From an uncultured Bacteroidota bacterium (GTDB lineage Bacteria > Bacteroidota > Bacteroidia > 2-12-FULL-35-15), in assembly GCA_903881065.1 (NCBI GenBank), contig CAIRRW010000071.1, forward strand, positions 1 through 34,729: a stretch of 34,729 nt of DNA. Direction: 5' to 3'. The notes under the pieces were generated by a model. The model saw nothing but the letters and a program-made list of their open reading frames with translations, made no database searches and had not been told where the DNA came from. Shown piece after piece: positions 1-20,953 of the stretch. A program made the translations under genes and the position numbers. How positions within the stretch are numbered: position 1 is the stretch's first letter; each line of letters begins with the position of its first letter.

Positions 1-1384
1 CCGCCACTTCCTGTAAGTGTTACAGGTATTCCATTACAAACAGTGGTTGCTGTTGTGTTCGCAATTATTGTCGGCAGATTATTTACAGTTACAGTTACTG
101 ATGAAGTGTTAGTACAACTATTAATATCAGTACCTGTAACAGTATATGTTGCTGTTGAAACCGGCGTAAATGAAACATCATTTGTTACACCTCCGCTCCA
201 AATATAACTTGTTGCTCCTCCTCCATGCAATGTATCTATAAAACCAGCGCATATACTTGTTGAACTTGCACTTGCTGTTATTACAGGCAAACTGTTAACA
301 GTAATAGATATTGTTGATGTATTACTGCAATTAGTACCAACAGTTCCTGTAACAGTATATGTTTGAGATGATGAAGGAACAAAAGCAACATTATCTGTTA
401 CTCCTCCACTCCAACTATAACTTATTGCTCCTCCACCAATCAATGTTATTGATGTGCCCGAACATACTGTAGTTGCTGAAGCATTTGCGGTAATTGTAGG
501 TAATGAATTTACAGTAACTGTAACTAAATTTGTATTTACACATCCATGGCTATCAGTGCCAGTAACAGTATAACTTCCAGTTGCAGCAGGAATAAATGAA
601 ACCCCATCTGTTACACCGCCAGTCCAGCTATAAGTCGTTCCGCCGCTTCCTGTAAGCGTTACAGGAATACCATTACATATACTGGTTGCAGTTGCGTTTG
701 CAATTATTGTTGGCAATGGATTTACTGTAACTGTTACTGATGCAGTATTGTTACATCCATTATTATCAGTACCTGTAACAGTATATGTTGATGTAGATGA
801 AGGGCTGAATGATACACCATTTGTTACACCTCCGCTCCAAACATAACTGGTTGCTCCTCCTCCATGCAATGTATCTGTAAAGCCATCGCATATACTTGTT
901 AAACTTGCACTTGCTGTAACTAAAGGCAATGGATTAGCTGTAACTGATATTGATGCTGTTGCCTGACATCCATTTCCATCAGTTCCTGTTACAGAATAAC
1001 TACCCGAACAAAGACTTGTAAGTGTTGAGGAAGTAAATCCGCCAGTCCACAAATATGTATATCCAGGTGTACCGCCCGACAAGGACACAGAAGCAGCACC
1101 ATTGCATGTTCCTGCACAGGTACCGGTAACTGTATTTGATAATACCGGCAATGGATTCACTACTATAGAAACTGAAGATGTATTCGTGCAACTATTATTA
1201 TCCGTACCTGTAACCGTATAAGTTCCTGACAATACTGGAACAAAAGCAACAGCATTAGTTACACCGCTAGTCCAACTATAAGTTGTTGCGCCACTTCCTA
1301 AAAGAGTTGCAGAAGAACCGCTACAAACAGACGGAGCTGAACTACCCGCTGTCACAGTTGGTAAAGCATGGATAATAAATTTCA
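1..1384 (-). repeat. Tandem ~213-nt (~71 aa) Cys-bracketed Ig-like repeats, 6 full copies plus 1 partial, including one SprB-type unit; continues off window
   Basis: Units translate as LP.I.A.AS...(V/I)C.G....L.G.GA.SY.WSGGVT..V.F.P.....YTVTGTD.N.C.N. The YTVTGT anchor (plus-strand cctgtaacagtata) lies near 140, 352, 565, 778, 988 and 1212. The unit near 1000-1150 reads GTCAGTCNGAASVSLSGGTPGYTYLWTGG...LCSGSYSVTGTDGNGC, which is SprB-repeat-like. Confidence 0.7.
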
Positions 1385-4300
1385 AACTGTCAGGAAGACT
1401 TGCACAACCAGTTGACAGATTATTTTGAGTTACATAGTATATATAAGAACCTGCAGCTGTTTGTGTGGATGAATATGAATTACCACTTTGAACAAGTGTA
1501 GTTAAATTTTGATTACTATACCATTCAATATTTGTTCCTGTAGCAGTAAATGTTGGGTTTGTCTGTCCAAAACAAATGGATGCATTACCTGAAGTAATAG
1601 GCATAGCAGGATTAGAATTAATAGTAAGTGTAACTGTATTAGCCGGCCCTGAACATCCTCCAACAGTTTGAGTAATATAATAAGTATACGTTCCGACAGC
1701 AGTCATTCCAGTGTTATAAGTGTTGCCATTAAATAATGAAGTACCTAAAACAGCACTGCTATACCAGTTAACATTGCTACCTGAGGAAGTAAGTGAAGGA
1801 ACAGTACCTCCAAAACAAACACTTGCATCAGTTCCTGATGGTGCACCAGGAGCACTATTAATAGATAGTGTAACTGTATCCGCTTTCGACTGACAACCTG
1901 TAACAGAATTTGTTTGTGTTACATAATACGAATAAACACCAACAGAAGTATCGCCAGTTGCAAAGCTATTTCCACTGAATAAAAGTGTAGATGCATCATA
2001 CCATTGAATGTTTGTACCTGTTGCTGTAAGCGGAGGAACTGTTGTTCCTCTACAGATAGAAACATTTGCGGCTACCGGAGGTGCAGTATAATTTATTTTT
2101 AAAGTTGTAGTATCCGGATGACTCTGACAACCTGTTAATGTATTTAAGTCATAAACATAGTATGTATGAGTTCCAGGTGATGTTATTCCAGTTGTAAAAG
2201 GACTGCCGTTGTGTACAACAGCTCCTGTTGTATCGTGCCAAATTATGTTTGTTCCCGATGCAGTTAAATCAGGAACTGGATTTCCAAAACAAACTGTAAC
2301 AGGAGTTGCAACCGGAGTAACAGGAATACTGTTAATGGTTAATGTATCAGGTGCAGCAGGGCTTTCACATCCATTAACAGTTTGTGTTACCGAATAAGCA
2401 TAAACCCCTGCTACGGTATTTCCAGTGGTAAATGTATTACCGGAATGAACTACTGTAGAAACAGAGTACCATTGAATTGTTGTTCCTGCTGCACTTAAAT
2501 CAGGTATTGTTCCACCAAAACATGCGCCCTTATTTACAACAACAGGTGTAGTTGGAATTGCATTAATAGTAAGTGTAACCTTAGTATATAGACTTTGAAC
2601 ATTGTTAACGGTCTGCGTTACAAAATAATTATAAACTCCAACTGTAGTGTTTCCTGTAGCAAATGGATTTCCTGAATAAACTAAATGAGTTAACAACGAA
2701 TCGCTGTACCATCTGATATTATTACCTGTTGCAGATAAATCAGGAGTAGCGGTTCCAAAACAATTACTTTGATTAGAAGATACCGGATTACTTGGATAAA
2801 TAGTAAGTACAACTGTATCTCGTGCACTCTCGCAATTATTTAACGTTTGTGTTACATAATAGATATAAGCGCCTATTGCTGTAACACCTGTAGAGAATGT
2901 ATTATTAGTAGATACATTAACCATAGCTGAATCGTACCAGATAATATTTGTTCCAATTGCTACCAAATCAGGCGTTGCAGTACCAAATGGAATAGAAATA
3001 TTATTAACATGTACAGAAGGAGTAAAGTGAATTGTAAATGTAATTGTGGATGCAGGACTTACACATCCATTTGTAGTTTGAGTAACATAATAGGTATAAG
3101 TGCCCGCAGCTGTTTGTGTAGGAGTAAATGTACTTCCAGTTCCTGCAAGGGTTGTTAAAGTAACATCACTGTACCAATTAATATTACTTCCTGTAGCACT
3201 TAAAGTTGGATTCGCTTGTCCAAAACAAATCGCAACATTGCCTGAAGTAACAGGAGCAGCAGGCGTTGGATTAATTGTTAAGGTTACAGAATCAGCAGGA
3301 CTTTGACAACCACTAACAGTTTGAGTTAAATAATATGTATATACTCCTGCTGCTGTATTACCAGTATTGTATGTATTTCCATTAAATAATACTGTGGATA
3401 AATTTTGATTGTTATACCAGTTAACATTTGTTCCTGTGGCTACTAAAACAGGTGTTGACTGACCAAAACAAACGTTTGCATTTGATGAAACTGGTGCTGA
3501 AGGCAAAGCATTAATTGCAAGGGTAACAGTATCCTTTAAACTTTCACATCCCGTTGTTGAATTGGTTTGAGTTACATAATAAGTATGAATACCAATCACT
3601 GTTTGTCCTGTATTGAAAGGGCTTCCCGAATGAACTGCTGCAAACGCTGAGTCATACCATTGAATATTTGTACCCGTCGCAGTTAGCGCTGGAATTGTAG
3701 TTCCTGCACAAACACTAACATTTGAAGCAACAGGGCGCGCCGTAAAGTTTATTGTAACAGATACAGTATCATAAGGGCTTTGGCAACCAGTTAATGTACT
3801 TGTTTGAGTTACCAGATAAGTATATACTCCTGGTAATGTTTTACCAGATGCGAACGGACTTCCTGAGCCTATTAATGAAGGAGCTGTAAAATACCATTTA
3901 ATATTAGTACCTGTTGCCGTTAAATCAGGAGTTGATGAACCAAAACAAGAAGAAACATTTGAAGCAACAGGTTTCGATGGAAGACTATTAATTGTTAATG
4001 TATCTGCTTTTGAAGGGCTTTCACATCCATTAAGTGTTTGTGTTACAGTATATGGATAAACTCCAACCGCAGTGTTTCCTGTTGCAAATGAACTGCCGGA
4101 AGAAATAACGGAAGTACCAGAATACCATTGGATAGATGAACCTGTTGCTGTAAGATTAGGAATTACTCCTCCAAAACAAGCAGATTGATTATTTGCATTT
4201 GGCGCAGCAGGAATTGAATTTATTGTCAAGGTTACTGTTGTTGGAGAACTTTGAATACCATTAACAGTTTGGGTTACATAATAGGTATATGTTCCAACTA

Positions 4301-7300
4301 TACTTTGTCCTGTGGCAAAAGTACTACCCGAATGAACAAGATTAGTAAGACCCGAATTACTGTACCAATTAATGTTCATACCTGTGCTGGTTGTCAAATC
4401 AGGAATAGTGTTGCCAAAACAAATTGCAACATTCGATGAAACAGGAGCAAGTGGTCGTATGGTTAATTTAACGGTATCTTTAACACTTTCACATCCATTT
4501 AAAGTTTGAGTAACATAATATGTATATTGTCCAATAGCAGTTTGACCTGTAGCAAAAGTATTTCCTGTTGCCGTTGAGGTTCCTGTTGAATCATACCAAA
4601 TAATGTTGCTGCCAACAACAGTAAAATCAGGAACTGTTGTACCAGCAACTACATTAATATTACTAGCAGAAACAGGAGGTGTCAAATGAATTGTAAACAC
4701 CAAGTTTGAAGCAGTACTCGAACATCCATTAACTGTTTGTGTTACATAAAAATTATAAATTCCGGCAGCAGTTTGAGCTGGAGTAAAAGGACTGCCTGTA
4801 TGAACCAGAGTTGTTAATGCAGCATCACTATACCAGTTTACATTCGTTCCGGTAGCTGTTAACGAAGGATTAGCTTGACCAAAACAAATTGAAACATTAC
4901 CGGAAGTAGTTGGTGAAGCAGGATTTGGATTAATAGTTAGAGTAACTGTATCTGGAGGACTTACCGGGCAACCAATTGTACTGTCAGTTAAATAATAAAT
5001 ATAAGTGCCAACAGCAGTATTTCCTGTATTGTATGGGTTACCAGTATAAACAAGTGTAGTTAAAGAAGAGTTGCTATACCAATGTATTATTGTTCCTGTT
5101 GATGATAGCGAAGCTACTGACTGACCAAAACAAGAAACAACATCATTCGCTGTTGGTTTCACAGGAGCACTGTTAATTACCAAAGCAGCGGTATCAGGTT
5201 TGCTGATACAACCACTTGCTGAATCAGTTTGGGTTATATAATAAGTGTATGTTCCTACAGCAGTATTTCCTGTGTTGTATGGATTACCTGTAAACAAAAG
5301 ATTAGTCAACGCAGGGTTGCTATACCATTTAACTGTATCGGCACCTGTTGAGGATGCTACTAAATGCGGCGTGGGATTTCCAAAACATGAGTTTGCATCG
5401 TTTGTAATTGGTCGGGAAGGCAAAGCTCCAATATTCAAATGTACTGTATCAGCAGGACTAGTGCATCCTAAAGCAGACTGAGTTAAATAGTAAGTATAAT
5501 TACCAACAGCTGTTAATCCTGTATTGTATGTATTACCGCTATGAACTAATGTTGTTAAACCAGGATTACTATACCATGAAACATTTGTACCTGTTACAGT
5601 TAATGCTGGTGTAGATTGACCAAAACATATTTTGACATTAGCTGAAGTCGGTGCTGAAGGTAAAGGATTGATAGTAAGGATTACTCTCTTTGCAGAACTT
5701 TCACAATTATTTAGTGTCTGTGTCACATAAAAAGTGTCAACACCTACCGCTGTAAGCCCTGTATTATATGGATTCCCTGCATATAAGAATGTCATATTCG
5801 AACTATACCATTTCAAGTTTGTCCCTGTTGCAGTAAGAGTAGATGATGAACTTCCAAAGCATGAAGTTTGACTGTTTGCTGTTGGTTGCGATGTGAAATG
5901 TATTGTAAGAGTTGCGGTATCTTTTGCACTTGCACAACCCAACAAAGAATCAGTTTGTGTTACATAATAAGTATATGTACCAGGTGAAGTTAAACCAGTA
6001 GAATAATTATTACCAATATGAAGTTGTGACAAGGAAGGACTATACCATTTAATAGTATCGCTACCTGTTCCTGTTGCACTGAAGGAAGGTATTGTACCTC
6101 CAAAACATGCGGATATGTTATTTACAATTGGTTTAGAAGGTATAGAATGTATAATAAGCGAAACTGTATCTGAAATGCTTTTAGGACATCCTGCAGTACT
6201 ATCAGCAACATAAAAAGTATAGGTTCCTGCAGCTGTCATTCCAGTGTTATAAGGGTTACCAACATAAAGCAAATTAGTTAAACTTGAATTAGAATACCAT
6301 TTTTGAATTGTTCCAGTAGAAGTTAATGTTGGTATTGCACTTCCAAAACAAGCTGACTTATCAGCAGCAACAGGTTTAGTAGGAGCAACATTTATATGGA
6401 GTTGAACACTATCCTTTCTGCTTTGGCACCCATTTATTGAATCAGTAGCTGTTACGTAATAGGTATAAACTCCAACGGCAGTTTGTCCTGTATTGTAGGC
6501 TGCTCCTATATGCTGTAAAACCATTGAAGAATTATACCATTTTATTGTATCACCTGAATTTCCTGTAGCAGTAAATGACGGAACAGTATAACCATAACAA
6601 ACATTTATACTACTTGCCACAGGAGGTGCTGGAGCAATAGAATCAACAGTCAGAGTTACGGGGATGGTATCAACTGTATTTAATGGGTCGTTTGAATTCA
6701 AAAATATAGAATAGTTATGTACTCCTGGTGCTTGTCCATTTTTATAAAACACAACCGAACCCGTATAAGAGTTTCCTGCAGATGTTGTTCCTAAACGTGG
6801 ACTAATATTTACCCATGTTGGAGTTATATAAGCACCTCCTCTTAGTACACCGTTATTGCCAGATGGACTTAAATCATTTGCTGTTCCATTCTCAAAATTC
6901 CAATATCCTTTTAACCCAACCTCATTACCAGTTAAAGTATTAGTCATTGAAGTTACTATTTCGGCCTGTGATAATGCAAGATTGTATATTCTTACTTCAT
7001 CAATTTTACCATTAAAATATCTACCAGGATAATCCGTAGAACCGATAGCAAAATTATTAGATTGGACATTAGGTAACGAGGAAAGGGTTCCATTTATTGG
7101 AACTCCATTCATATACAATGTAACAGAAGTACCATTAAGTACACAAGCTATATGATTCCATTGGTTTAATACTGCCGTAGGACCTGAATTCGGGACGAAA
7201 TCATTACACCATGTTGCCATACTAGGTCGCCCATTGTTTTGAATAGAAAGCAACATTGCTGTTCCATTACAGTACCTGCCACCCCAACTCACTATTCCGT

Positions 7301-10300
7301 TGTAAGTTCCATCAGGATAAGAAACAGGATATATCCATGCTTCAGCCGTCATTACACTTCCCGTTGGCAAGTTAACAGTTCCATTATTTATATAAGCGCT
7401 GTTCCCATTAAATACCGCGCTTCCACTATTTGAGTTAGTTAAACTCCATAATAAGTTACTGCCTCCATTTGTATTGCATACCGTTATAGGCTTAGCAATA
7501 GAATCCTGGCAAATTGTAAAGTGAATATTATAAGAATTTGGACTATGACATTGCTCAGGTCGTGGATAACCTATACCTGATAAACAAATTTTCTTTGTTA
7601 CATTATTATCAATTATTGTTAATGTATCCTTAAATGTTCCAACAGTAGTTGGTGAAAACACTACTCTTACTTTAGCAGAATCTCCAGGTAGTAAATTAAA
7701 CGATGTTGGACTAACTGAATAAACACTGAGCTGATGAGTAATATCAGTTATCTTCAAAGTGTCACACCCAGTATTCTTTACATAAAGAGAAGAATCGATG
7801 GAGGCAGTATTAATCATTATCGAATCAAGATTCAAACAGTTTCTATTTGTCGAAATTAAGCCAGTACCTGTTACATGAAGTGTGCAATGAACGGAATCGA
7901 TCGGTTTTAATGGGTCGTTAGAACTAATCACCACATCTGTATTATAAGTTCCTACCAATAATCCACAACTCTTAAATTTCATATTAACAATACTTGATCC
8001 TCCAGCAGTTGTTGTGTCTTTATTAGGTGTATAACTTAACCAAGTTGAATTGTTGTTAAGATAATAAAGAGCATTAGCGAACATCATGTCTGTTGAAGCA
8101 TTTGCCGAATTGAGATATTCAGGAAATATTACCATTCCTATTACTTTTCCATTATGGTTTTCAGCCACTACCTTGTTGCCTGATAAGTCAGAAGCAAGTA
8201 ATGTCGCTCCTGGATTAAGTGATGGATTGTAATAATTGCAATTTGTCCAATAGGATGGATTAACACTAATATTTTTAAATATAGGGTGATTATGATTTGG
8301 GAGTGTTGCTAAATTTATAGTACCTGAAACACATTGAGTACTGCCAGATTGTATAAATGGAGAATAATTTGCCCCCATTATCCCTCCTGACATTCCCCAA
8401 TTAGAATTAAAGGCATACGTTCCAATTATTACACCTCCACCATTATCAACATATTTTTTAAGAGTATCACCTACCATGGAAGAACCGAATGAATTATCAG
8501 TCCAAACAAGTACAGCATTATAAGGAGCTAACATGGTCATTTTTAAAGATGATGGATTTACCATAATATCTATATCTGAAGCAATAAATTTACCAGTTGA
8601 AACAAGGGCATTCTTAGCATTAACTCCAGCATCACCTGCGGTCAGAATAAGTACTTTTGGTTTTGTTGTACCTCCTCCACCTTTAATGCTACAAATCAAA
8701 TTTGAACCACCTGTATTGTTAATTGTTAATGGAAGAATGGTGGAATCACAACATGACAAACTTACATTGAATGACGTTGGAGTTGTAGAAAGAATTGGTC
8801 TTTGAAAACATTTTCCTAACAAACATACTTTTTTGGTAATATTATTATTTAATATAGTAAGCGTATCAAGGAAAGTACCAACAGCAACAGGAGAAAAAGT
8901 GGTATATAATTTTGTTGAATCACCTGGCAAAATTTTAAATGATGTAGCATTAACCGTAAATATATTTAGTTGGTTAGTGATATTAGTAATCTTCAATGTG
9001 TCACACCCTGTATTTTTAATATAAAGGGAATCTTTATGCGAGGTATATTGCATTATTGAATCAAGATTCATACAATTCTTTGACAAGGCTATTCTACCAG
9101 CTCCAACTACAGTTAAAGAACAAGGCACAATTAATGGACTATTAATCGGATCGTTACTTGTTATTGAAACAGTTGCTGTATTTGTTCCTACATTTAAATT
9201 GGAAGAATTAAAATTCACATTAACTATATTCGAATTACCTGAAGCTACACTTCCTGTTAAACTTGACAATGCAACCCAAGAAGCAATCTTAACTGTGTAA
9301 TCTTCAAATTGACCATACGTAACATTCGTGCATGGTTGTGGTGCAGAATAATAATAATATTCTGATCCAACCCTCATCCTTACCGCTTTATTCTTAACAG
9401 CAGTTGTTGGAATTGTAACAGTACCTGTATGAAGAGTATTTGGCAGTGAATTAAGATTATTCAATACCATTTCACTAGCATCGAAAACACCATCATTATT
9501 GAAGTCAATCCATACTCTCACATTCTCAGGATAACTAGTTCCTGTTTGTACTGATATGGAGTAAGTTTGTCCTGGAATTACCACTGTACTTTGCGATGAT
9601 GTATAATTCTGGTAACCCTGCACAGCATTGCCAGTAGTATTATTAATGGAACCAAAAGTAACATTATAAATACCCATATTGCAACACGTTCCTGTAGTGG
9701 CAGGTGCGCATAAAGCTGCTGAAGGCAAATTGGAATTCATTGATGGATTCAACAAATTAATATTGTAATTCAATACGGAACCTCCAGTATTATTTATTGT
9801 TAAGACACTAGAAGTCGAATCAACACAGGAAAGTGTCGCATTTATTGACGTTGGACTTGTAGTAATAGTTGGCATTGCGAAAGCTTTTCCTGATAAACAA
9901 ACTTTTTTTGTTGCATCATTATTTATGATTGTAAGTGTATCTTGGAAAGATCCAACTGCTATAGGCGAAAACGTCGAGTATATCTTTGTTGAATCCCCTG
10001 GCAGAATATTAAAAGTTGTAGGATTAACTGTAAAAATAGAGGTTTGCGTTGTGATATTTGAAATCTTTAATGTATCACATCCTGTATTCTTCACAAACAT
10101 GGAATCCTTATGTGTTCGATGTTGCATAATAGAATCCAGATATATGCAGTTTTTTGACAAAGCAATTTTACCCGCTCCGGATACATGAAGAGTACAATGA
10201 ACTGTGTCATTTGAATTAAGAGGGTCATTAGAATTTACAATTATGTTAGTAGTATAGGTTCCCACTGGCAATCCGCAACTTTTTAATTTTACATAAACGG

Positions 10301-13300
10301 TATCCGTGCCACCGGCAGAAATATTACCTGAGAATAAACTAGCTGAAAAGCCTTCAGGAAAAGAAACCGGATTGCTTGTATTTAACCAAGAAGTATTAAT
10401 GCTAGTTCCATTATTACTATTCAAAGTTTTATCAAACAAGGTTGTACCACTTCCTTCAGAAAGTGGATAATAGGCAACCAATCCTGATAGCGCGGGATTA
10501 ATTTGACCATACAAGTTAGCAGCTATCTGTGCTTGTGTTCTTGCATAATTCCAAATCCTTACTTCAGTAATATCACCATTATAATAATAAGAATGACTTC
10601 CTGTGCCTCCATAAGCTCCAATTATTTCTCCCAGTTGTCCTTTTACTAATGGACAAGTAAATGAACTTGTTCCTCTTAATACCCCGTCTACATATACTTT
10701 CTTATTTGATCCATCATAGGTGGCTGCTATATGATGCCAAGCTCCATTTGTGATCCCGATAGAAGCAGAATTCAAATAATAATCCGTTCCGCATCCTCCA
10801 GATTGAGGATAGGTTCTGAAACACAAACTTGTCCCTTCAAAAAATAACGAATACTGCGTATTTACTGGACCCTTTTCAAAAATAAATCCATTCTGATTAT
10901 AATTAGAAGAATAAACCCAAGCTTCAATCGTCAACTGATTTAAATCAAATGCAGTAGAGTTATTAATTTGGACATAGCTATTGGCACCATTATAATTTAA
11001 AGTATGACTATTATTTTTATTCAAACTCCAATTTAGATTTGAGCCTCCTGCATTATTAACTGCCAATGGCAATGTAATTGAATCACAACATGCCAATGTT
11101 TCATTAAAATAAGTTGGGGAAGTTGAAAGAATTGGTCTTGCAAATGCTTTACCTGACAAACACAATTTTTGCGTTATGTTATTGTTTAAAATAGTTAATG
11201 TGTCATTGAAAGTTCCAATGGTAGTTGGGGCAAAGGTTACTTTAAGTTTCGCCGAATCACCGGGTAAAATGTTAAATGATGTTGAATTAACAGAATAAGC
11301 AGCTAATTGATGAGTAATATTTGTAATCTTCAATGTATCGCATCCAATGTTTTTCACGTATAATGAATCCATTTTACTTCTGTATTGCATTATTGAATCC
11401 AAATTCATACAGTTTTTTGTTAGTGCAATTGTTCCTGAACCTGAAACATGAATTGTATATGGTACTACAATAGGATTGTGAATAGGATCGTTATTATTGA
11501 TGGTTATATTACCTGAATATGTTCCAACATTTAATCCCATCGAACTAAATTGTACATTCACAGTACTTAATGATCCCGAGCCTATGGTCCCAGAATAGGA
11601 AGAAACAGATTCCCCAATTGATGAACTTGTTTTTAAAGTATAATCTTCGAATTGTCCATAAGTAACACTATTACATGGTTGAGGAACTCCATAATAATAA
11701 TATTCCGAGCCTACTCTCATCCTCATTGCACCATTTGCCCCAGCATTAAGGGGTATGGTAACACTTACAGTATGTACATTATAGCTAGAATTCCCATTCA
11801 TAATTTGCTCATTGGCTTCAAATATTCCATTGTTGTTATAATCAATCCACGCACTTACATATTCAGTATAGGAAGGTCCAGTTTGGACAGATAATGTATA
11901 GGTATGTCCTGGAATTATCAATGTGCTTTGGCTTGATGTATAATCCTGATAACCTTGTGTTGCATTTCCAGTTGTATTATTGATAGTATTAAATGTTACA
12001 TTATATATTCCCATATTACAGCAGGTTCCAGTAGTGATTGGTCTACAGGAAGGATTTACTGGTAAATTAGGATTGATAATAGAATAATTTAAAGCTCCTC
12101 CTCCTGTGTTATTAATTACAAGAGAAGTATTGAGTGAGTCGGAACAGCCAAGAGTAACATTAAACGAGGTAGGATTTGTAGAAATTGTTGGATTAGGGAA
12201 TGCTTTTCCTGTTAAACAAATTGCTGTATCTATTGCATTAGTATATAGTGAGAGTGTTCCTGAGAACGTTCCTGCATTGGTTGGGGAAAACTTCACTACT
12301 AAGTTTTTACTTAAGCCAGGTGCAATCATTGTTGGATAAGAGACAACAGAGTAAACGGATGGCGAAATGGAATAACTGTTTATTCTTAAAGTATCACAAC
12401 CTGTATTTGTTATTTTTAATGAATCTGTACTGGTAGTATTTGCCATTATTGAATCCAAATCAAGACAAGGTTTGGTTGTATTATACATAGAAGCTGTTAA
12501 GTGAGGGCTTCCATTAACAGTCAACGTCCAAGGTATTTGTAATGTTGGAGTAACCGGATCATTACTTGAAAGTGCAATACTTCCTGAATAAGTACCGGAG
12601 CTATAACCTATTGAATTAAAATTGACATTCAAATTTGTTGAACTATTTGCAGGAATAGTGCCTGAAGTTGGAGACATTGTTATTAATGTTGGCACCTTTA
12701 CTACATAGTCTTCTGTTTCTCCATAATAACCGCTTAAAGACCCACATGGTGAAGGGGCTGATCCATTAGTCCAATCAATAATTCTCATTCGAGTTGCTCC
12801 TGCTGCTGCATTCTGAGGAACAGTAATAGTAAAGGTTCTCAAACTATTTCCAGTTGAAACATTTGTTACTACTTCTTCATTTGCATCAAAAACCCCATTT
12901 TGATTCCAATCTATCCATACCGAGAAGTAAGCAATATTACAACTCCCTTGGGCTTGAAGGTTTAACATAAAAGTGCCTCCTCTGTTTTGCGAAACAAATG
13001 GAGCAGTATAATATGAATAATCTCCATATGGGTAACTTCCATCTACAGGAGACGTAATATTTGTAATTCCTCCGGAAGTTGTTACACTATTAATATAGGA
13101 ACACCCGTTATAAGGATACATGGTTGGATTACAATATCCAGTTGGTGGATTAGAATTATTTCCAGAACTTATTCCAGTTGCATTCCAATTCAAAACACTT
13201 CCTCCTGAATTAATTAACAATACAGATGAAGCTGTTGAATCAGAACAACCCAAAGCAACAGAAAGTGAAGTTGGCAAGACTCCAATAATCGGGTTGGCAA

Positions 13301-15959
13301 ATGCTTTTGAGTTTAAACAAACTGTTGTATCGGCTAGATTTGAATAAATAGTAAGTATGCCAGAAAAGATCCCTGCCGTTGTCGGAGAAAATTTAATTAA
13401 TACATTTTTACTTACTCCAGGAGCAATCATACCTGAAGTAGATGAAAGAATGGAATAAGCAGAATTAGAAATATTCATGCTGCTAATCATTAATGTATCA
13501 CAACCAGTATTTGTTATAGAAAGTGAATCCATTCGCGTGGTGTTTGCCATTATGGAATCATGATCTATACAAGAATTTGGATTATTGAATAAGGTAATAT
13601 TGTATTGAGCAGTACCAACAACATTTAATGTACAAGGAATTGATACAGTAGGAGTACTTGGGTCATTAGTAGCGATAATAATGGAATTAGTATATGTACC
13701 TGCAACAAGCCCGTTCGAACTAAAATGAATAGAATCGTAAAGAGTACTGCCTGCTGAAACATTACCGGAACTTTGGGAAACAGTAAACCAACCACTTCTA
13801 TTTGCAGTATAACTTAATGCATTCGCCATTAACATGGCACCATCTGTACTAGTTATCCAATTATCACCAGGCCACATATTCAAATCAACACGATTAGTTC
13901 CGTTTATTTGCCGTGTGGCAATAAGCGGTGTTCCATCCGACCAATCTGCAATTCTTGTCGCAAGCGGATCAACGGAAGAAGCATTGGCACGATACGAATT
14001 CCCTCCTCCATCAAAACTAGAAACATTCTGTAAAATAGGACTGTTCGGACTATAGATGGTTCCTAATGTTGCCTCACTTGAGAAATAACCGCCAGGATGG
14101 TCAATGCACCAGTAATTACTCGAATTAAATCGTCCTCCAATATTGGCATTTTCTAGAGACCACATTGCAGTTACTACTCCTCCTCCTCCATCAATATAAT
14201 CTGCCAGATTATTTCCAAGTGTAGTATAGTCAGCGTAACCCCAATCGCTCCATACCATAACAGCATCATATTGTTTTAGCTGCGTTAAAGTAGGAGTTAC
14301 AGTTGCAGTATTATAAATATCAATAATTGAAAATTTGCCAGTAGCCATTAGAGTTGACTGAAGCCCTGGCAATGCATTGTATTCAGCACCCATTAATGCT
14401 GCTTTTATTTTTTGCTTTGAAGCTTGAAAAGATAAATTACTGGCACCTGTATTGCTTATTGCGAGTGTACTTAAAGACGAGCTACTACAACCAAGTGTTA
14501 CATTAAAAGAAGGAGGAGTAACTGAAACAGTTGGTATTGCCGAACAATAACCAATAAGACAAATGGTAGTATCGTGTGCATTGTTATGAATTGTTAATGT
14601 ACTGGTATTGTTTCCAAGTATCGTTGGAGCAAATGTAATAGTTATTTTTACTGAATCATAAGCAGCTATCGTATCAATTGCAGGGGACACTATAAAAGCG
14701 GAATTAGAACTAATGATGCTGCTGACAATAAGCGAACCGCAAGCAGTATTATATAACTTAATTGTTTTTGAGGAATAACTTGTTTGCACTGTTGTATCCA
14801 ATTTGACACAACTTGTGGGAATGCCAATTGCAGGAAGATTTGAGCAGCAATCATGTATTTGAATTGCTGTATGTTCGTCATCAGAGACGCCATTGCCTAA
14901 TTGCCCATAACTATTATATCCCCATGCCCAATAAGTTCCATCATTTTTTATAGCCAAGGTGTGATTCATTCCTGCTGCAATTGCAGTGATGCCGGATAAT
15001 GAACTAACTAGGGCTGGATAATTTCTTGAATTGGTTGTTCCATTGCCTAATTGTCCATTATTATTGTAACCCCATGCCCAGATAGTACCATTATTTCCTA
15101 AAGCAAGTGAATGGTAAGTACCTGCTGAAATTGCAGTTATCCCTGACACATAGCTCACTTGAACAGGTGAATATTGCGTACTATTTGTTAAGTTCCCAAT
15201 TCCTCCATAATAATTGTATCCACATGCCCAAACAGTTCCATTATTTTTCAAAAAGAGCGAATGATAAGCTCCTGCACTTATAGTTGTGATACCTGATATT
15301 GATGTCTGAACAGGGATTAATTTGTCATTACTAGTAGCATCCCCTAACTCTCCGTAATAATTATAGCCCCACGCCCAAACAGTACCATCATTTTTTAATG
15401 CCATTGCATGATAATTTCCTGCCGATATTTTTGTGATACCTGAAAGAGAGGTAATTTGAATAGGATAAGAGCTATTGTAATAAGTACCATTGCCTAATTG
15501 CCCATACCCATTATAACCCCAAGACAATACAGTACCATCACTTTTTACAGCATAAGAGGAATAATAACCTGCTGCAACAGAAACAATTCCAGTTAATGCT
15601 CTAACCTGAATTGGATAAGGGTAAGAATTGTAAGTACTGTCTCCTAATTGTCCATATCCATTATATCCCCAAGTCCATACTGTACCATCGCTTTTTAGAG
15701 CAATAGTATGGTATTCACTACCAGTAATAGCTATAACTCCTGAAAGCCCATTAATAATTTGAGGTTGTGTAATACTATTAAATGTGCTATCCCCTAATTG
15801 GCCATTTCCATTATTCCCGAAGGCTTTTAATTTCCCGTCATTGCATACAAGAAAGCTATGGTAAGCTCCAGCTCCAATAATTTGGGAGTTCACTGTTTCA
15901 CTTAAGAAAGAGAAAGATAACAGGAGTAATAACGGTGGAAAAAGTAATTTTCTTTTCAT
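1..15959 (-). CDS. Giant secreted multidomain cell-surface adhesin-like protein. The 5' end is complete and the 3' end runs off the window start (at least 5319 codons in window). A T9SS C-terminal sorting domain is expected beyond the window.
   Basis: ATG at 15959-15957 is followed by MKRKLLFPPLLLLLSFSFLSETVNSQ. Hand translation of the minus strand near 15950, 15239, 7418, 2579 and 524 gave five sensible domain sequences, all in the same frame (distance from 15959 divisible by 3). The track lists no long minus-strand ORF here, which fits an ORF with no in-window stop being omitted; the same happens for the + ORF at the 3' edge. Confidence 0.85.
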   Translation of the reverse strand, partial: MKRKLLFPPLLLLLSFSFLSETVNSQIIGAGAYHSFLVCNDGKLKAFGNNGNGQLGDSTFNSITQPQIINGLSGVIAITGSEYHTIALKSDGTVWTWGYNGYGQLGDSTYNSYPYPIQVRALTGIVSVAAGYYSSYAVKSDGTVLSWGYNGYGQLGNGTYYNSSYPIQITSLSGITKISAGNYHAMALKNDGTVWAWGYNYYGELGDATSNDKLIPVQTSISGITTISAGAYHSLFLKNNGTVWACGYNYYGGIGNLTNSTQYSPVQVSYVSGITAISAGTYHSLALGNNGTIWAWGYNNNGQLGNGTTNSRNYPALVSSLSGITAIAAGMNHTLAIKNDGTYWAWGYNSYGQLGNGVSDDEHTAIQIHDCCSNLPAIGIPTSCVKLDTTVQTSYSSKTIKLYNTACGSLIVSSIISSNSAFIVSPAIDTIAAYDSVKITITFAPTILGNNTSTLTIHNNAHDTTICLIGYCSAIPTVSVTPPSFNVTLGCSSSSLSTLAISNTGASNLSFQASKQKIKAALMGAEYNALPGLQSTLMATGKFSIIDIYNTATVTPTLTQLKQYDAVMVWSDWGYADYTTLGNNLADYIDGGGGVVTAMWSLENANIGGRFNSSNYWCIDHPGGYFSSEATLGTIYSPNSPILQNVSSFDGGGNSYRANASSVDPLATRIADWSDGTPLIATRQINGTNRVDLNMWPGDNWITSTDGAMLMANALSYTANRSGWFTVSQSSGNVSAGSTLYDSIHFSSNGLVAGTYTNSIIIATNDPSTPTVSIPCTLNVVGTAQYNITLFNNPNSCIDHDSIMANTTRMDSLSITNTGCDTLMISSMNISNSAYSILSSTSGMIAPGVSKNVLIKFSPTTAGIFSGILTIYSNLADTTVCLNSKAFANPIIGVLPTSLSVALGCSDSTASSVLLINSGGSVLNWNATGISSGNNSNPPTGYCNPTMYPYNGCSYINSVTTSGGITNITSPVDGSYPYGDYSYYTAPFVSQNRGGTFMLNLQAQGSCNIAYFSVWIDWNQNGVFDANEEVVTNVSTGNSLRTFTITVPQNAAAGATRMRIIDWTNGSAPSPCGSLSGYYGETEDYVVKVPTLITMSPTSGTIPANSSTNLNVNFNSIGYSSGTYSGSIALSSNDPVTPTLQIPWTLTVNGSPHLTASMYNTTKPCLDLDSIMANTTSTDSLKITNTGCDTLRINSYSISPSVYSVVSYPTMIAPGLSKNLVVKFSPTNAGTFSGTLSLYTNAIDTAICLTGKAFPNPTISTNPTSFNVTLGCSDSLNTSLVINNTGGGALNYSIINPNLPVNPSCRPITTGTCCNMGIYNVTFNTINNTTGNATQGYQDYTSSQSTLIIPGHTYTLSVQTGPSYTEYVSAWIDYNNNGIFEANEQIMNGNSSYNVHTVSVTIPLNAGANGAMRMRVGSEYYYYGVPQPCNSVTYGQFEDYTLKTSSSIGESVSSYSGTIGSGSLSTVNVQFSSMGLNVGTYSGNITINNNDPIHNPIVVPYTIHVSGSGTIALTKNCMNLDSIMQYRSKMDSLYVKNIGCDTLKITNITHQLAAYSVNSTSFNILPGDSAKLKVTFAPTTIGTFNDTLTILNNNITQKLCLSGKAFARPILSTSPTYFNETLACCDSITLPLAVNNAGGSNLNWSLNKNNSHTLNYNGANSYVQINNSTAFDLNQLTIEAWVYSSNYNQNGFIFEKGPVNTQYSLFFEGTSLCFRTYPQSGGCGTDYYLNSASIGITNGAWHHIAATYDGSNKKVYVDGVLRGTSSFTCPLVKGQLGEIIGAYGGTGSHSYYYNGDITEVRIWNYARTQAQIAANLYGQINPALSGLVAYYPLSEGSGTTLFDKTLNSNNGTSINTSWLNTSNPVSFPEGFSASLFSGNISAGGTDTVYVKLKSCGLPVGTYTTNIIVNSNDPLNSNDTVHCTLHVSGAGKIALSKNCIYLDSIMQHRTHKDSMFVKNTGCDTLKISNITTQTSIFTVNPTTFNILPGDSTKIYSTFSPIAVGSFQDTLTIINNDATKKVCLSGKAFAMPTITTSPTSINATLSCVDSTSSVLTINNTGGSVLNYNINLLNPSMNSNLPSAALCAPATTGTCCNMGIYNVTFGSINNTTGNAVQGYQNYTSSQSTVVIPGQTYSISVQTGTSYPENVRVWIDFNNDGVFDASEMVLNNLNSLPNTLHTGTVTIPTTAVKNKAVRMRVGSEYYYYSAPQPCTNVTYGQFEDYTVKIASWVALSSLTGSVASGNSNIVNVNFNSSNLNVGTNTATVSITSNDPINSPLIVPCSLTVVGAGRIALSKNCMNLDSIMQYTSHKDSLYIKNTGCDTLKITNITNQLNIFTVNATSFKILPGDSTKLYTTFSPVAVGTFLDTLTILNNNITKKVCLLGKCFQRPILSTTPTSFNVSLSCCDSTILPLTINNTGGSNLICSIKGGGGTTKPKVLILTAGDAGVNAKNALVSTGKFIASDIDIMVNPSSLKMTMLAPYNAVLVWTDNSFGSSMVGDTLKKYVDNGGGVIIGTYAFNSNWGMSGGIMGANYSPFIQSGSTQCVSGTINLATLPNHNHPIFKNISVNPSYWTNCNYYNPSLNPGATLLASDLSGNKVVAENHNGKVIGMVIFPEYLNSANASTDMMFANALYYLNNNSTWLSYTPNKDTTTAGGSSIVNMKFKSCGLLVGTYNTDVVISSNDPLKPIDSVHCTLHVTGTGLISTNRNCLNLDSIMINTASIDSSLYVKNTGCDTLKITDITHQLSVYSVSPTSFNLLPGDSAKVRVVFSPTTVGTFKDTLTIIDNNVTKKICLSGIGYPRPEQCHSPNSYNIHFTICQDSIAKPITVCNTNGGSNLLWSLTNSNSGSAVFNGNSAYINNGTVNLPTGSVMTAEAWIYPVSYPDGTYNGIVSWGGRYCNGTAMLLSIQNNGRPSMATWCNDFVPNSGPTAVLNQWNHIACVLNGTSVTLYMNGVPINGTLSSLPNVQSNNFAIGSTDYPGRYFNGKIDEVRIYNLALSQAEIVTSMTNTLTGNEVGLKGYWNFENGTANDLSPSGNNGVLRGGAYITPTWVNISPRLGTTSAGNSYTGSVVFYKNGQAPGVHNYSIFLNSNDPLNTVDTIPVTLTVDSIAPAPPVASSINVCYGYTVPSFTATGNSGDTIKWYNSSMVLQHIGAAYNTGQTAVGVYTYYVTATDSINGCQSRKDSVQLHINVAPTKPVAADKSACFGSAIPTLTSTGTIQKWYSNSSLTNLLYVGNPYNTGMTAAGTYTFYVADSTAGCPKSISDTVSLIIHSIPSKPIVNNISACFGGTIPSFSATGTGSDTIKWYSPSLSQLHIGNNYSTGLTSPGTYTYYVTQTDSLLGCASAKDTATLTIHFTSQPTANSQTSCFGSSSSTLTATGTNLKWYSSNMTFLYAGNPYNTGLTAVGVDTFYVTQTLNNCESSAKRVILTINPLPSAPTSANVKICFGQSTPALTVTGTNVSWYSNPGLTTLVHSGNTYNTGLTAVGNYTYYLTQSALGCTSPADTVHLNIGALPSRPITNDANSCFGNPTPHLVASSTGADTVKWYSNPALTNLLFTGNPYNTGNTAVGTYTYYITQTDSASGCISKPDTAALVINSAPVKPTANDVVSCFGQSVASLSSTGTIIHWYSNSSLTTLVYTGNPYNTGNTAVGTYIYYLTDSTIGCPVSPPDTVTLTINPNPASPTTSGNVSICFGQANPSLTATGTNVNWYSDAALTTLVHTGSPFTPAQTAAGIYNFYVTQTVNGCSSTASNLVFTIHLTPPVSASNINVVAGTTVPDFTVVGSNIIWYDSTGTSTATGNTFATGQTAIGQYTYYVTQTLNGCESVKDTVKLTIRPLAPVSSNVAICFGNTIPDLTTSTGMNINWYSNSGLTNLVHSGSTFATGQSIVGTYTYYVTQTVNGIQSSPTTVTLTINSIPAAPNANNQSACFGGVIPNLTATGSSIQWYSGTSVISSGSSFATGNTAVGVYPYTVTQTLNGCESPSKADTLTINSLPSKPVASNVSSCFGSSTPDLTATGTNIKWYFTAPSLIGSGSPFASGKTLPGVYTYLVTQTSTLTGCQSPYDTVSVTINFTARPVASNVSVCAGTTIPALTATGTNIQWYDSAFAAVHSGSPFNTGQTVIGIHTYYVTQTNSTTGCESLKDTVTLAINALPSAPVSSNANVCFGQSTPVLVATGTNVNWYNNQNLSTVLFNGNTYNTGNTAAGVYTYYLTQTVSGCQSPADSVTLTINPTPAAPVTSGNVAICFGQANPTLSATGSNINWYSDVTLTTLAGTGSTFTPTQTAAGTYTYYVTQTTNGCVSPASTITFTIHFTPSVHVNNISIPFGTATPDLVAIGTNIIWYDSAMVNVSTNNTFSTGVTAIGAYIYYVTQTLNNCESARDTVVLTIYPSNPVSSNQSNCFGTATPDLSATGNNIRWYSDSLLTHLVYSGNPFATGNTTVGVYNYFVTQTVNNVQSLYTKVTLTINAIPTTPVVVNKGACFGGTIPDLSAAGTTIQWYSVSTVVHSGNTFTTGNTVAGVYAYSVTQTVNGCESPAAPDTLTINSIPVTPVATPVTVCFGNPVPDLTASGTNIIWHDTTGAVVHNGSPFTTGITSPGTHTYYVYDLNTLTGCQSHPDTTTLKINYTAPPVAANVSICRGTTVPPLTATGTNIQWYDASTLLFSGNSFATGDTSVGVYSYYVTQTNSVTGCQSKADTVTLSINSAPGAPSGTDASVCFGGTVPSLTSSGSNVNWYSSAVLGTSLFNGNTYNTGMTAVGTYTYYITQTVGGCSGPANTVTLTINSNPAMPITSGNASICFGQTNPTFTATGTNIEWYSNQNLTTLVQSGNSYSSTQTAAGSYIYYVTQNNLSTGCASLPDSLKFIIHALPTVTAGSSAPSVCSGSSATLLGSGATTYSWTSGVTNAVAFVPVLSGTYTVTGTDNNSCTNTSSVSIVVNPLPVLSNTVTGTCAGTCNGAASVSLSGGTPGYTYLWTGGFTSSTLTSLCSGSYSVTGTDGNGCQATASISVTANPLPLVTASASLTSICDGFTDTLHGGGATSYVWSGGVTNGVSFSPSSTSTYTVTGTDNNGCNNTASVTVTVNPLPTIIANATATSICNGIPVTLTGSGGTTYSWTGGVTDGVSFIPAATGSYTVTGTDSHGCVNTNLVTVTVNSLPTITANASATTVCSGTSITLIGGGAISYSWSGGVTDNVAFVPSSSQTYTVTGTVGTNCSNTSTISITVNSLPVITASASSTSICAGFIDTLHGGGATSYIWSGGVTNDVSFTPVSTATYTVTGTDINSCTNTSSVTVTVNNLPTIIANTTATTVCNGIPVTLTGSG
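1385..6650 (-). repeat. 22 tandem ~240-nt (~77-80 aa) Ig-like repeats of the type associated with CHU_C/T9SS giant proteins
   Basis: One unit translates as P..P.V...V.CFGG.IPDLSA.GT.I.WY.......H.GN.FTTG....G.Y.Y.VTQT.NGCES....L.I. The CFG anchor (plus-strand ccaaaaca or variants) recurs 22 times, near 1568, 1810, 2045, 2285, 2515, 2755, 2990, 3220, 3465, 3705, 3940, 4170, 4415, 4640, 4880, 5120, 5385, 5625, 5865, 6105, 6345 and 6595. Confidence 0.8.
6930..7420 (-). other. Guest domain 7: LamG (Laminin_G_3 / concanavalin A-like lectin) domain
   Basis: Translation is AVFNGNSAYINNGTVNLPTGSVMTAEAWIYPVSYPDGTYNGIVSWGG...LNQWNHIACVLNGTSVTLYMNGVPINGT...FAIGSTDYPGRYFNGKIDEVRIYNLALSQAEI. Confidence 0.8.
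8055..8656 (-). other. Guest domain 6: second copy of the uncharacterised alpha/beta (GATase1/ThuA-like?) domain
   Basis: Translation is KVLILTAGDAGVNAKNALVSTGKFIASDIDIIMVNPSSLKMTMLAPYNAVLVWTDNSFGSSMVGDTLKKYVDNGGGVIIGTYAF...TDMMFANALYYL. It is a paralog of 13805-14410. Confidence 0.35.
9285..9710 (-). other. Guest domain 5: GEVED-type domain
   Basis: Translation is CAPATTGTCCNMGIYNVTFGSINNTTGNAVQGYQNYTSSQSTVVIPGQTYSISVQTG...VRVWIDFNNDGVFDASEMV...KAVRMRVGSEYYYYSAPQPCTNVTYGQFEDYTVKI. It is a close paralog of 11628-12050. Confidence 0.65.
10497..11000 (-). other. Guest domain 4: LamG (Laminin_G_3 / concanavalin A-like lectin) domain
   Basis: Translation is LNYNGANSYVQINNSTAFDLNQLTIEAWVYSSNYNQNGFIFEK...GAWHHIAATYDGSNKKVYVDGVLRG...YNGDITEVRIWNYARTQAQIAANL. 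This is the classic F.G.dyv ... T.EaWv ... W.Hva.tyDG..l.lYvDG ... f.G.idEvRiwn.aRt..eI pattern. Confidence 0.75.
11628..12050 (-). other. Guest domain 3: GEVED-type domain
   Basis: Translation is SCRPITTGTCCNMGIYNVTFNTINNTTGNATQGYQDYTSSQSTLIIPGHTYTLSVQTG...VSAWIDYNNNGIFEANEQI...GANGAMRMRVGSEYYYYGVPQPCNSVTYGQFEDYTLKT. Confidence 0.65.
12693..13139 (-). other. Guest domain 2: GEVED-type domain
   Basis: Translation is GYCNPTMYPYNGCSYINSVTTSGGITNITSP...YFSVWIDWNQNGVFDANEEV...AAAGATRMRIIDW...PCGSLSGYYGETEDYVVKV. It carries the WIDWNQdG.F core, the trMR motif and a C-terminal GE(T)EDY signature. Confidence 0.65.
13805..14410 (-). other. Guest domain 1: uncharacterised alpha/beta domain, possibly class-I glutamine-amidotransferase-like/ThuA-like fold
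   Basis: Translation is KAALMGAEYNALPGLQSTLMATGKFSIIDIYNTATVTPTLTQLKQYDAVMVWSDWGYADYTTLGNNLADYIDGGGGVVTAMW.... The alternating beta-alpha pattern with a (Y)D/NAV(L/M)VW.D and V/IDxGGGV signature is paralogous to 8055-8656. The fold assignment rests on pattern memory only. Confidence 0.35.
14860..15880 (-). repeat. Seven RCC1-like repeats (predicted 7-bladed beta-propeller), period ~150 nt
   Basis: Translated motifs GNNGNGQLGDST, GYNGYGQLGDST, GYNGYGQLGNGT, GYNYYGELGDAT, GYNYYGGIGNLT, GYNNNGQLGNGT and GYNSYGQLGNGV lie near 15795, 15645, 15495, 15345, 15195, 15045 and 14895. They are interleaved with HS/HT..ALK.DGTVW strands typical of RCC1/ATS1 repeats. Confidence 0.8.
15885..15959 (-). other. 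N-terminal signal peptide of the giant protein
   Basis: MKRK n-region, LLFPPLLLLLSFSFL hydrophobic core, then a polar SETVNSQ stretch. The cleavage position is approximate. Confidence 0.6.
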
Positions 15960-16151
15960 TTGAATGAATTATAAATTAGATGTATATATTTAATATTTAG
16001 ACAGAACCATATGCTATGCGGCTAAAGTAATAAAATGTTTTATCAGAAAAAAGGACTTATGTTAGAAATATTCATTTTTAAGTTAAATACCTACTAAACA
16101 TTGATTTTTAACCTTAAAGAAAAACATTGGAACGCGAAATGTCAAGTTTTC

Positions 16152-18371: not shown

Positions 18372-18388
18372 TGGTTAATATAATTTCT

Positions 18389-19453: not shown

Positions 19454-19456
19454 AAA

Positions 19457-20659: not shown

Positions 20660-20698
20660 TGGTTAATTGTCAATATTAAATTGTCAATTATTAAAGAA

Positions 20699-20953
20699 TT
20701 ATTTTTTGTTCTCATTAATAAATTCAGCCATTGTTCTGATGGACTGGAAAATCTTTTTCCCATCGGCAGGGTTGGATATTTTTATTCCATAATTTTTTTC
20801 CAACAATACTATCAGCTCAAGAGCATCAATAGAATCCAATCCTAAACCTTCTCCAAATAAAGTTGCATCACTATCAATATCTTCATTTTTTAAACCTTCA
20901 AGATTTAATTGCAAAATGATCTCCCCTTTTAATTTGTCCATTAATTCTTCCAT
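20699..20953 (-). CDS. Acyl carrier protein
   Basis: 84 aa, acidic, with the phosphopantetheine attachment motif LGLDSIDALELIVLLE. Confidence 0.85.
   Translation of the reverse strand: MEELMDKLKGEIILQLNLEGLKNEDIDSDATLFGEGLGLDSIDALELIVLLEKNYGIKISNPADGKKIFQSIRTMAEFINENKK

Follow-up and report, generated by a model that had tools for sequence, protein, structure and literature searches.

The window analysed here is a 34,729-nucleotide (nt) contig (CAIRRW010000071.1, assembly GCA_903881065.1) from an uncultured Bacteroidota bacterium, and a single giant open reading frame (ORF) on its minus strand encodes a protein in which seven consecutive modules (M1 to M7, window 6639-14828, minus strand) each appear to contain an immunoglobulin (Ig)-like host domain interrupted by a separate guest domain. 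The structural claim, that each module is a true domain insertion with one Ig-like host split by an autonomous guest, is a strong one and we hold it with high confidence. The overall interpretation, that these modules make up the region of ligand display in a giant fibrillar surface protein that is secreted and in which split Ig hosts carry projecting guests, is held with good confidence.

Evidence for one Ig-like host per module

We parsed the modules by their conserved motifs and numbered residues on the translation starting at position 15968 (Table 1). Every module follows the same plan: an intact Ig domain (95-105 amino acids, aa), an N-half (41-43 aa) which ends in ...L.I.N.GG..L.W in all seven modules, a guest (152-223 aa) and a C-half (58-60 aa) with the pattern W..sP.sG...G.Y...I.I.SNDP....P..L.V.G. 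The initial annotation of this DNA had proposed seven split hosts at 6930-14880, each with the two motifs held apart by 140-200 residues of an unrelated fold. Parsing of each module bore out the separation in all seven, the modules themselves and the unrelated folds; the guest lengths had to be corrected to the range given above, and the position 6930 fell about 290 nt short, cutting the M7 C-half and part of its LamG guest.

At about 41 and about 59 aa, the halves add up to some 100 aa, the size of one Ig domain, and therefore neither can be a complete Ig; indeed, no profile found a complete domain in the flanks of the guests. When the guests were deleted, the seven scaffolds had a mean column identity of 58% (alignment A1) and matched the Pfam families HYDIN_VesB_CFA65-like_Ig (PF22544, positions 19-96 of 100) and BACON_2 (PF19190, positions 2-91 of 94), in each case in a single stretch across the junction, with guest-deleted M1 scoring 27.3 bits against PF22544, above the gathering cut-off of 25.5. 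Comparison of A1 with the seven intact Igs of the same protein by hhalign paired columns 24-87 with 28-94 (E=3.8e-5), and the sole indel lay at the junction. In addition, the solved HYDIN domain 2ys4 aligned across the junction with a 3-residue loop there, in a PDB sequence search that returned weak HYDIN matches only, and an NCBIfam scan of the split modules and scaffolds gave nothing useful (choice_anch_D at 13 bits only).

Natural unsplit homologues were found when the A1 profile was searched against a 5.8-billion-protein database. The match to P0014 (E=1.4e-23, 96% query coverage) indicates that the split pattern is not due to chance. P0014 to P0017 are unsplit homologues covering 76-96% of the scaffold, and these proteins and residues 636-739 of P0027 cover profile positions 2-100 contiguously. 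In the unsplit homologues the two motifs are contiguous (e.g., ...LNITNTGGGTLTYSLSDDATWLSLSPTSG...) with about 5-8 residues at the split point, in agreement with the initial expectation that the second motif usually follows within about 10 residues, and P0027 holds a split and an unsplit copy within one protein. Moreover, the consensus of 429 guest-deleted split copies was nearly identical to that of 365 unsplit copies. The guests are autonomous elsewhere: GEVED and ThuA-like domains were found without Ig flanks, and LamG and GEVED are standalone Pfam families.

AlphaFold2 (AF2) models were obtained for the M5 module (intact Ig, split Ig and GEVED, 358 aa; mean predicted local distance difference test, pLDDT, 90.3) and for the M6 split host plus guest (313 aa; pLDDT 86.9, predicted template modelling score, pTM, 0.71). 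Both models have four strands in the N-half (pLDDT 90-96) and five in the C-half, the nine strand elements are those of the adjacent intact Ig in the same order, and the chain exits between strand C and strand C'.

Covariation between the halves was analysed in the best 150 giant proteins of the exhaustive profile search described below, in earlier matches and in both query proteins. These supplied 429 split copies, from which the guest was removed, and 365 unsplit copies; all were aligned to one 100-position hidden Markov model (HMM), and mean-field direct coupling analysis was run on each set. Fifteen of the top 30 cross-half pairs agreed between split and unsplit copies within +/-1, against about 3 expected by chance (an estimate), and 10 agreed exactly. 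We then took the 30 strongest cross-half pairs of the unsplit set and measured their mean coupling in split copies. It was 0.99 for the true pairing of all 429 copies, -0.04 +/- 0.05 after a global shuffle of partners, and 0.18 +/- 0.05 (maximum 0.28 in 15 shuffles) when modules of one protein exchanged their C-halves. The coupled pairs lie at B-E, C-C', C-E, A-G and A'-G, which are the contacts expected in an Ig sandwich. Four independent lines, namely cross-junction profiles, unsplit homologues, AF2 models and cross-half covariation, all agree with the initial proposal of one split Ig host per module.

Several observations weigh against this interpretation. Guest-deleted M2 to M6 reached only 15-23 bits in Pfam, below the gathering threshold, and guest-deleted M7 gave no Pfam match; the packing of N-half on C-half is read from pLDDT, pTM and strand counts in predicted models; Foldseek searches of PDB with whole models neither demonstrated nor disproved the nested topology, as the whole M5 module matched tandem-Ig ciliary proteins at very high root-mean-square deviation and the M6 split-only model matched the guest fold; and shared ancestry of the two halves can inflate covariation, a concern which the shuffle controls reduce but do not abolish. 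The Foldseek result and the weak Pfam matches of several scaffolds would also suit beads on a string, with the short flanks as independent mini-domains or structured linkers. We regard this as very improbable, for 41 and 59 aa are too short for complete Igs, the junction is bridged by single-domain profiles and by natural homologues without a split, covariation links the two halves at pairs that are Ig contacts, and a pLDDT above 90 for a 41-aa four-strand piece is unexpected of an unsupported beta-meander. Least credible is a shifted register, in which each C-half would join the N-half of the next module (i with i+1) around an intact Ig as the real insert: the order C(i), full Ig(i+1), N(i+1) makes it formally possible for 6 of 7 pairs, but it needs a circularly permuted strand order, the coupling of N(i+1)+C(i) stays at background (0.12 vs 0.84 for N(i)+C(i), over the same 302 pairs), the unsplit homologues run N-half then C-half, and the numbers of N- and C-halves match in a module block that starts with an N-half and ends with a C-half.

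The scaffold also carries invariant cysteines, at columns C10, C33 and C93 of the intact Ig and at column C19 of the N-half (L.C.DS), and the final strand of the C-half often has one too (IPCTL, 4 of 7 modules). Disulfides formed by these cysteines may staple the scaffold; no covariation between positions 19 and 95 was seen among the top pairs.

Table 1. Features of the giant reading frame in window coordinates (residue numbers on the translation starting at 15968)
Feature	Position	Strand	Residues and remarks
Giant ORF	1..15959	-	signal peptide, RCC1-like propeller, 7 display modules, at least 20 Ig_7 repeats, PKD-like repeats
Sec-type signal peptide	15882-15959	-	MKRKLLFPPLLLLLSFSFLS...; starts the product, precedes the RCC1-like propeller
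RCC1-like seven-repeat beta-propeller	14844..15881	-	Pfam WD40_RLD 5e-99; RCC1 x7
M1 intact HYDIN/VesB-like Ig (spacer)	14544..14828	-	
M1 host N-half	14418..14543	-	aa 476-517; strands A, A', B, C
M1 guest, ThuA-like alpha/beta	13794..14417	-	aa 518-725 (208 aa); ThuA E=5e-4, below cut-off; aligns with M6 guest
M1 host C-half	13614..13793	-	aa 726-785; strands C' to G, TNDP motif
M2 intact Ig	13299..13613	-	
M2 host N-half	13176..13298	-	aa 891-931
M2 guest, GEVED	12687..13175	-	aa 932-1094 (163 aa); best GEVED stretch 1011-1087
M2 host C-half	12510..12686	-	aa 1095-1153
M3 intact Ig	12198..12509	-	
M3 host N-half	12075..12197	-	aa 1258-1298
M3 guest, GEVED	11619..12074	-	aa 1299-1450 (152 aa)
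M3 host C-half	11439..11618	-	aa 1451-1510
M4 intact Ig	11142..11438	-	
M4 host N-half	11019..11141	-	aa 1610-1650
M4 guest, Laminin_G_3 (LamG/concanavalin-like)	10350..11018	-	aa 1651-1873 (223 aa); Pfam
M4 host C-half	10176..10349	-	aa 1874-1931
M5 intact Ig	9879..10175	-	
M5 host N-half	9756..9878	-	aa 2031-2071; AF2: 4 strands, pLDDT 91-96
M5 guest, GEVED	9279..9755	-	aa 2072-2230 (159 aa)
M5 host C-half	9102..9278	-	aa 2231-2289; AF2: 5 strands, pLDDT 83-96
M6 intact Ig	8805..9101	-	
M6 host N-half	8682..8804	-	aa 2389-2429; AF2 pLDDT 90-96
M6 guest, ThuA-like / class-I glutamine-amidotransferase-like alpha/beta	8043..8681	-	aa 2430-2642 (213 aa)
M6 host C-half	7866..8042	-	aa 2643-2701
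M7 intact Ig	7566..7865	-	
M7 host N-half	7437..7565	-	aa 2802-2844
M7 guest, Laminin_G_3	6816..7436	-	aa 2845-3051 (207 aa); best stretch 2851-3001, profile positions 1-150 of 151
M7 host C-half	6639..6815	-	aa 3052-3110
Stalk of at least 20 Ig_7 (CHU_C-associated) repeats	1329..6638	-	after the display modules; Pfam Ig_7, 20 stretches, E=1e-140

Guest identity and variation

Pfam recognised three GEVED domains (1e-59), two Laminin_G_3 domains (5e-49, the M4 and M7 guests) and one weak ThuA match in the giant protein, and the best Laminin_G_3 stretch runs end to end. Together with the sub-threshold ThuA matches of M1 and M6 and the ThuA-like fold found by Foldseek for M6, the guest order from M1 to M7 (ThuA-like, GEVED, GEVED, LamG, GEVED, ThuA-like, LamG) is the one first read from the sequence, where the M1 and M6 guests were given as alpha/beta. 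The ThuA scores of the M1 and M6 guests, 30.0 and 20.7 bits, both lie below the cut-off of 33.4 and count against this naming. The AF2 model of M6 had ThuA-like structures (4pxy, E=1e-6, TMt 0.51; 4jqs) among its top Foldseek matches, and class-I glutamine-amidotransferase subunits also stood at the top (TMt up to 0.69). Both ThuA-like guests have GGGV at the nucleophile elbow and no Cys, which makes amidotransferase chemistry unlikely.

The GEVED homologues P0001 to P0013 carry the domain free-standing between PKD domains and type IX secretion system (T9SS) tails, without Ig flanks, and P0025 has a ThuA-like domain without Ig flanks. The database search with the M5 split host plus guest gave GEVED-only matches, as its word pre-filter missed proteins of the same architecture, which were found later by an M6-M7 query and by the exhaustive profile search. 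GEVED is a Pfam family first described beside the ligand-binding NR2 domain of the streptococcal adhesin CshA, and it is typical of adhesin contexts (PMC10952558). The GEVED guests of M3 and M5 are 67% identical, and each is 70% identical to guest H3 of the homologue L001 described below, while the M3 and M5 host scaffolds are only 49% identical, so that here the guest is more conserved than its host.

A genome scan with three closer modules led to one locus, L001, in the metagenome-assembled genome (MAG) Kiruna_bin-09093. Over about 5,300 aa the L001 protein is collinear with that of the window, with 50% identity, and it keeps all seven scaffolds with the same boundaries; intact Igs, N-halves and C-halves aligned with 0-2 gap columns per segment at 34-81% identity. 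The guests differ at four of the seven positions (Table 2). Furthermore, the scaffold of the sixth L001 module (H6) is closest to that of M6 (54%), yet its guest is closest to that of M1 (50% vs 33%). Differing guests on kept scaffolds, together with the mismatch at H6, argue that the guests were re-assorted in the course of evolution on a scaffold frame that stayed in place.

Table 2. Guests and flanks (intact Ig plus N-half) of the window protein compared with L001
Position	Guests (window vs L001)	Guest identity	Flank identity
1	ThuA-like vs unannotated 215-aa domain, unrelated	none (forced)	36-44%
2	GEVED conserved	52%	39-45%
3	GEVED conserved	70%	59-61%
4	LamG vs GEVED, unrelated	none (forced)	51-71%
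5	different GEVED subtypes	34%	66%
6	different ThuA-like subtypes	32%	54-62%
7	LamG conserved	71%	54-81%

The guest differences between L001 and the window could instead have arisen by duplication, loss and divergence of whole modules among paralogues, with no guest exchanged within a fixed scaffold, and we treat this as a serious though less probable alternative. The intact Igs of modules 4-7 are 54-73% identical among themselves across both proteins, and this paralogous homogenisation blurs positional orthology between the window and L001; the M1 guest (50%) and the M1 scaffold (46%) are both closest to H6, which suggests that a whole split module moved; and upstream of the gene L001 and the window share no nucleotide similarity, so the two loci are not syntenic there and strict orthology is not established, a point that also weighs against the main interpretation. 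Set against a history of whole modules are the end-to-end collinearity with seven modules in each protein, in which scaffolds differ by 0-2 gap columns and the guests at positions 1 and 4 are unrelated folds, the discordant H6 scaffold and guest, and the nucleotide collinearity from M3 to M4, which continues across the intact Ig and stops within the M4 N-half, some 55 nt short of the guest.

Present-day shuffling of cassettes by homologous recombination was rejected. The initial annotation had supposed that nucleotide similarity between the scaffolds would permit it; the module scaffolds are 67-75% identical at the nucleotide level, direct repeats in 6600-14900 are 67-77% identical, and the longest exact matches between module flanks are at most 17 nt upstream and at most 14 nt downstream. 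RecA-type recombination needs an exact match of roughly 20-30 nt, and therefore active shuffling is not favoured.

The exhaustive profile search gave 15,121 representative proteins with E<=1e-3, of which 1,166 had E<=1e-30, and our census covers the best 150 of the 15,121 (800-7,300 aa each). At least one split copy occurred in 120 of these 150 proteins, at least three in 85 and at least five in 26, and the most, ten, in P0044; the split module is thus common among giant surface proteins of the Bacteroidota type. Histograms of match starts and ends gave a single internal break at HMM positions 41-42 of 100, and the median guest length was 239 aa. The 430 guests fell into 35 single-linkage clusters, 24 of them with more than one member, and guest order varies freely among relatives; the clusters at one loop and the four differing guests of L001 uphold the initial view of a conserved scaffold with interchangeable guests. 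The largest cluster was a DUF4350/GIFT-like alpha/beta domain (122 copies), and the other guests included LamG, GEVED, NIDO-like, Reelin subrepeat B and ThuA-like domains as well as propellers (YWTD/LDL-receptor-B, Kelch-like, DUF6923-like). The second commonest insert, which we call H1-type after guest H1 of L001 (L001:5095-5739; also in P0021 and P0026), is about 215 aa long, has the motif IPNR[YF]DF.DG...DGG.DMYD.GN...PS[IV]NHLI[IV], occurs in 48 copies in 28 of the best 150 proteins and has no Pfam or NCBIfam match. With more than 20 unrelated guest families at the same site in other giant proteins, the C-C' loop appears to be an evolutionary hot spot.

A few carriers (P0035, P0037) are annotated as Gammaproteobacteria MAGs. 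P0035 (1,146 aa) has three split copies of the same Ig host outside Bacteroidota, one with a DUF4394 guest, so that the split-Ig scaffold is not limited to a single phylum.

Secretion, proposed function and the giant reading frame

The protein is most likely a T9SS cargo, as its N-terminal signal peptide, the 'CHU_C-associated' type of its Ig_7 repeats and its relatives suggest. P0069, the nearest relative of full length (57% identity over 3,495 aa), has Por_Secre_tail at its end (E=2.7e-12), and a crude local HMM found a T9SS type-A sorting domain at the end of at least 80 of the 150 best proteins. Once exported by Sec and secreted by T9SS, the protein would extend as a long Ig-domain stalk, with a display region in which intact HYDIN/VesB-like Ig spacers alternate with split Igs. 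In each split host, of an 'SNDP'/BACON_2-like subtype, the chain would depart from the sandwich once strand C is complete (position 41/42 of about 100), fold an autonomous guest and return to lay down strands C' to G, so that N-half and C-half would assemble into one beta-sandwich with the guest projecting from the C-C' loop. Held by both termini at this loop, the guest would stand off the stalk axis with its far face free for ligands. The putative ligand-binding guests are lectin-like LamG, adhesin-associated GEVED and non-catalytic ThuA-like alpha/beta domains, and the LamG and GEVED guests, together with the overall build, point to a multivalent, multi-specific adhesin as a plausible role.

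Two points weaken this functional interpretation: the C-terminus of the protein lies outside the window, so that T9SS export is read from a homologue, and adhesion and ligand binding by the guests are putative roles. The nested architecture could also be real and the guests enzymatic or structural, for instance polysaccharide-processing or matrix-organising, in a protein that is no adhesin. Most ThuA-like and class-I amidotransferase-like folds belong to enzymes or have no known function, and other guests at the same site include beta-propellers (YWTD, Kelch, glutamine-cyclase-like) and NIDO-like domains. We consider such a non-adhesive role unlikely, considering that the ThuA-like guests lack the elbow Cys, that lectin or adhesin contexts are where LamG and GEVED typically occur (for GEVED, PMC10952558), that a signal peptide, a long Ig stalk and a T9SS tail in relatives make up the build of a fibrillar adhesin, and that the analogous split domains of RTX adhesins carry ligand-binding domains shown by experiment (PMC12077191, PMC10865825).

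The list of ORFs for positions 1-16,000 held no long ORF on either strand because the single ORF runs off the window. Six-frame translation showed a minus-strand frame open from 15968 to 1 (5,322 codons) with its first ATG at 15959, and the product exceeds 5,319 aa, with its C-terminus beyond the window start. An assembly artefact or a pseudogene was rejected, as the ORF is intact and the same boundaries recur in a second MAG. The intact HYDIN/CFA65/VesB-like Igs gave seven Pfam stretches (E=1.6e-67, 224 bits in total) and passed the cut-off, and no RTX or haemolysin-type Pfam domain was found across 5,300 aa of the product.

The RCC1-like propeller is N-terminal in the window protein, whereas in the relative P0018 RCC1 repeats lie C-terminal to a split-Ig module, so that this domain too is mobile in the family. 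In the last part of the ORF within the window (3-1328, minus strand) the repeat type changes to repeats of about 90 aa with the motif C.G....L.G.GA.[ST]Y.W.GGV......F.P....TYTVTGTD.NGC.N...V.V.VN.LP, whose sole match is a very weak K319L-like PKD (E=8e-4), and this family is effectively unannotated. Immediately upstream of the giant gene, 17607-22822 (minus strand) holds three beta-ketoacyl-synthase-like genes and a polysaccharide deacetylase, a cluster resembling an aryl-polyene or flexirubin-type lipid/pigment locus. Further along, a 480-aa ORF at 31418-32860 (minus strand) has a borderline Por_Secre_tail match (27.1 bits vs a cut-off of 27), which hints at a further T9SS cargo and would fit a host that has T9SS.

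Comparison with known systems

Among known systems the nearest analogue is found in RTX fibrillar adhesins, which are secreted by the type I secretion system (T1SS): the split domain of MpIBP, Vibrio cholerae FrhA and Aeromonas hydrophila AhLap, whose published and experimentally established rationale is to hold the guest out from the stalk axis, its two termini on the same side (PMC12077191; PMC10865825); the window protein is not a member of this group. In both, an Ig-like beta-sandwich (here a predicted one) lies in a giant repetitive protein, an adhesin in the RTX case and a putative one here; the chain leaves the sandwich, folds a separate domain that is ligand-binding in the RTX adhesins and putatively so here, and returns, and ordinary extender Igs stand between the units. 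They differ in secretion (T1SS with RTX repeats, against a likely T9SS route here with no RTX or T1SS signature) and in host family (a BIg-type extender, against the HYDIN/VesB/BACON_2-like 'SNDP' subtype). The split point lies after the first beta-strand in RTX adhesins (PMC12077191) and after the fourth strand (C), at 41 of 100, in the window protein. AhLap has three ligand-binding domains, two of them budding from Ig-like split domains, compared with seven guests here and up to 10 in relatives, and the guests differ in kind: a CBM, PA14, a peptide-binding domain, vWFA and the RTX roll in the RTX adhesins, and GEVED, LamG, ThuA-like and DUF4350-like domains, propellers and others on the 'SNDP' host.

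The families to which the host is related, HYDIN/CFA65/VesB-like Ig (PF22544), ASH/PapD-like and BACON_2 (PF19190), are contiguous domains in their Pfam models, and the insertion hot spot does not appear in the family descriptions as retrieved. Gram-positive pilus tip adhesins such as RrgA also have an Ig-like host interrupted by a binding domain, a vWA placed within a CnaB-type domain; they are pilins that are assembled by sortase and contain isopeptide bonds, with a different host family and a single nested set, as opposed to the seven-fold series described here. Giant T9SS surface proteins of Bacteroidota with Ig_7/CHU_C-associated repeats are SprB-like, and they share with the window protein a signal peptide, a length of thousands of residues, a long Ig_7 stalk and, in its closest full-length relative, the T9SS tail. 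In the searchable, partial literature we found no description of serial split-Ig modules in T9SS, HYDIN-like or BACON_2-like contexts, and the main text of a 2026 survey of domain insertions contains no Ig-like or adhesin hosts (PMC13114784).

More generally, the 'SNDP'/BACON_2-like Ig may be a general-purpose display scaffold, with one permissive C-C' loop that accepts more than 20 unrelated folds, from 150-aa jelly rolls to 300-aa six-bladed propellers, in serial use of up to 10 in many giant T9SS surface proteins and with guests reshuffled from one collinear homologue to another; it would then represent a previously undescribed combinatorial multi-ligand adhesin architecture of Bacteroidota and the Fibrobacteres-Chlorobi-Bacteroidetes (FCB) group, convergent with the RTX split domains. 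The chances for and against this generalisation seem to us evenly balanced. The split-Ig design indicates that two unrelated secretion systems have reached the same architectural solution, and a small beta-sandwich tolerating whole-domain inserts of 150-300 aa at one loop, across many natural contexts, is a candidate scaffold for domain insertion in protein engineering. The guest differences between collinear homologues offer a tractable system for studying the gain and exchange of domain insertions. Genomes and metagenomes abound in giant surface proteins of Bacteroidota, which are almost entirely uncharacterised, and the generalisation would provide a practical rule for locating the functional domains in such unannotated megaproteins: if the working domains bud from a split Ig, one would search for the N-half ...L.I.N.GG..L.W and the C-half W.s.sP.sG...SNDP and take what lies between as candidate ligand-binding domains, the same criterion as is used for RTX adhesins, which exposes unannotated guest families such as the H1-type.

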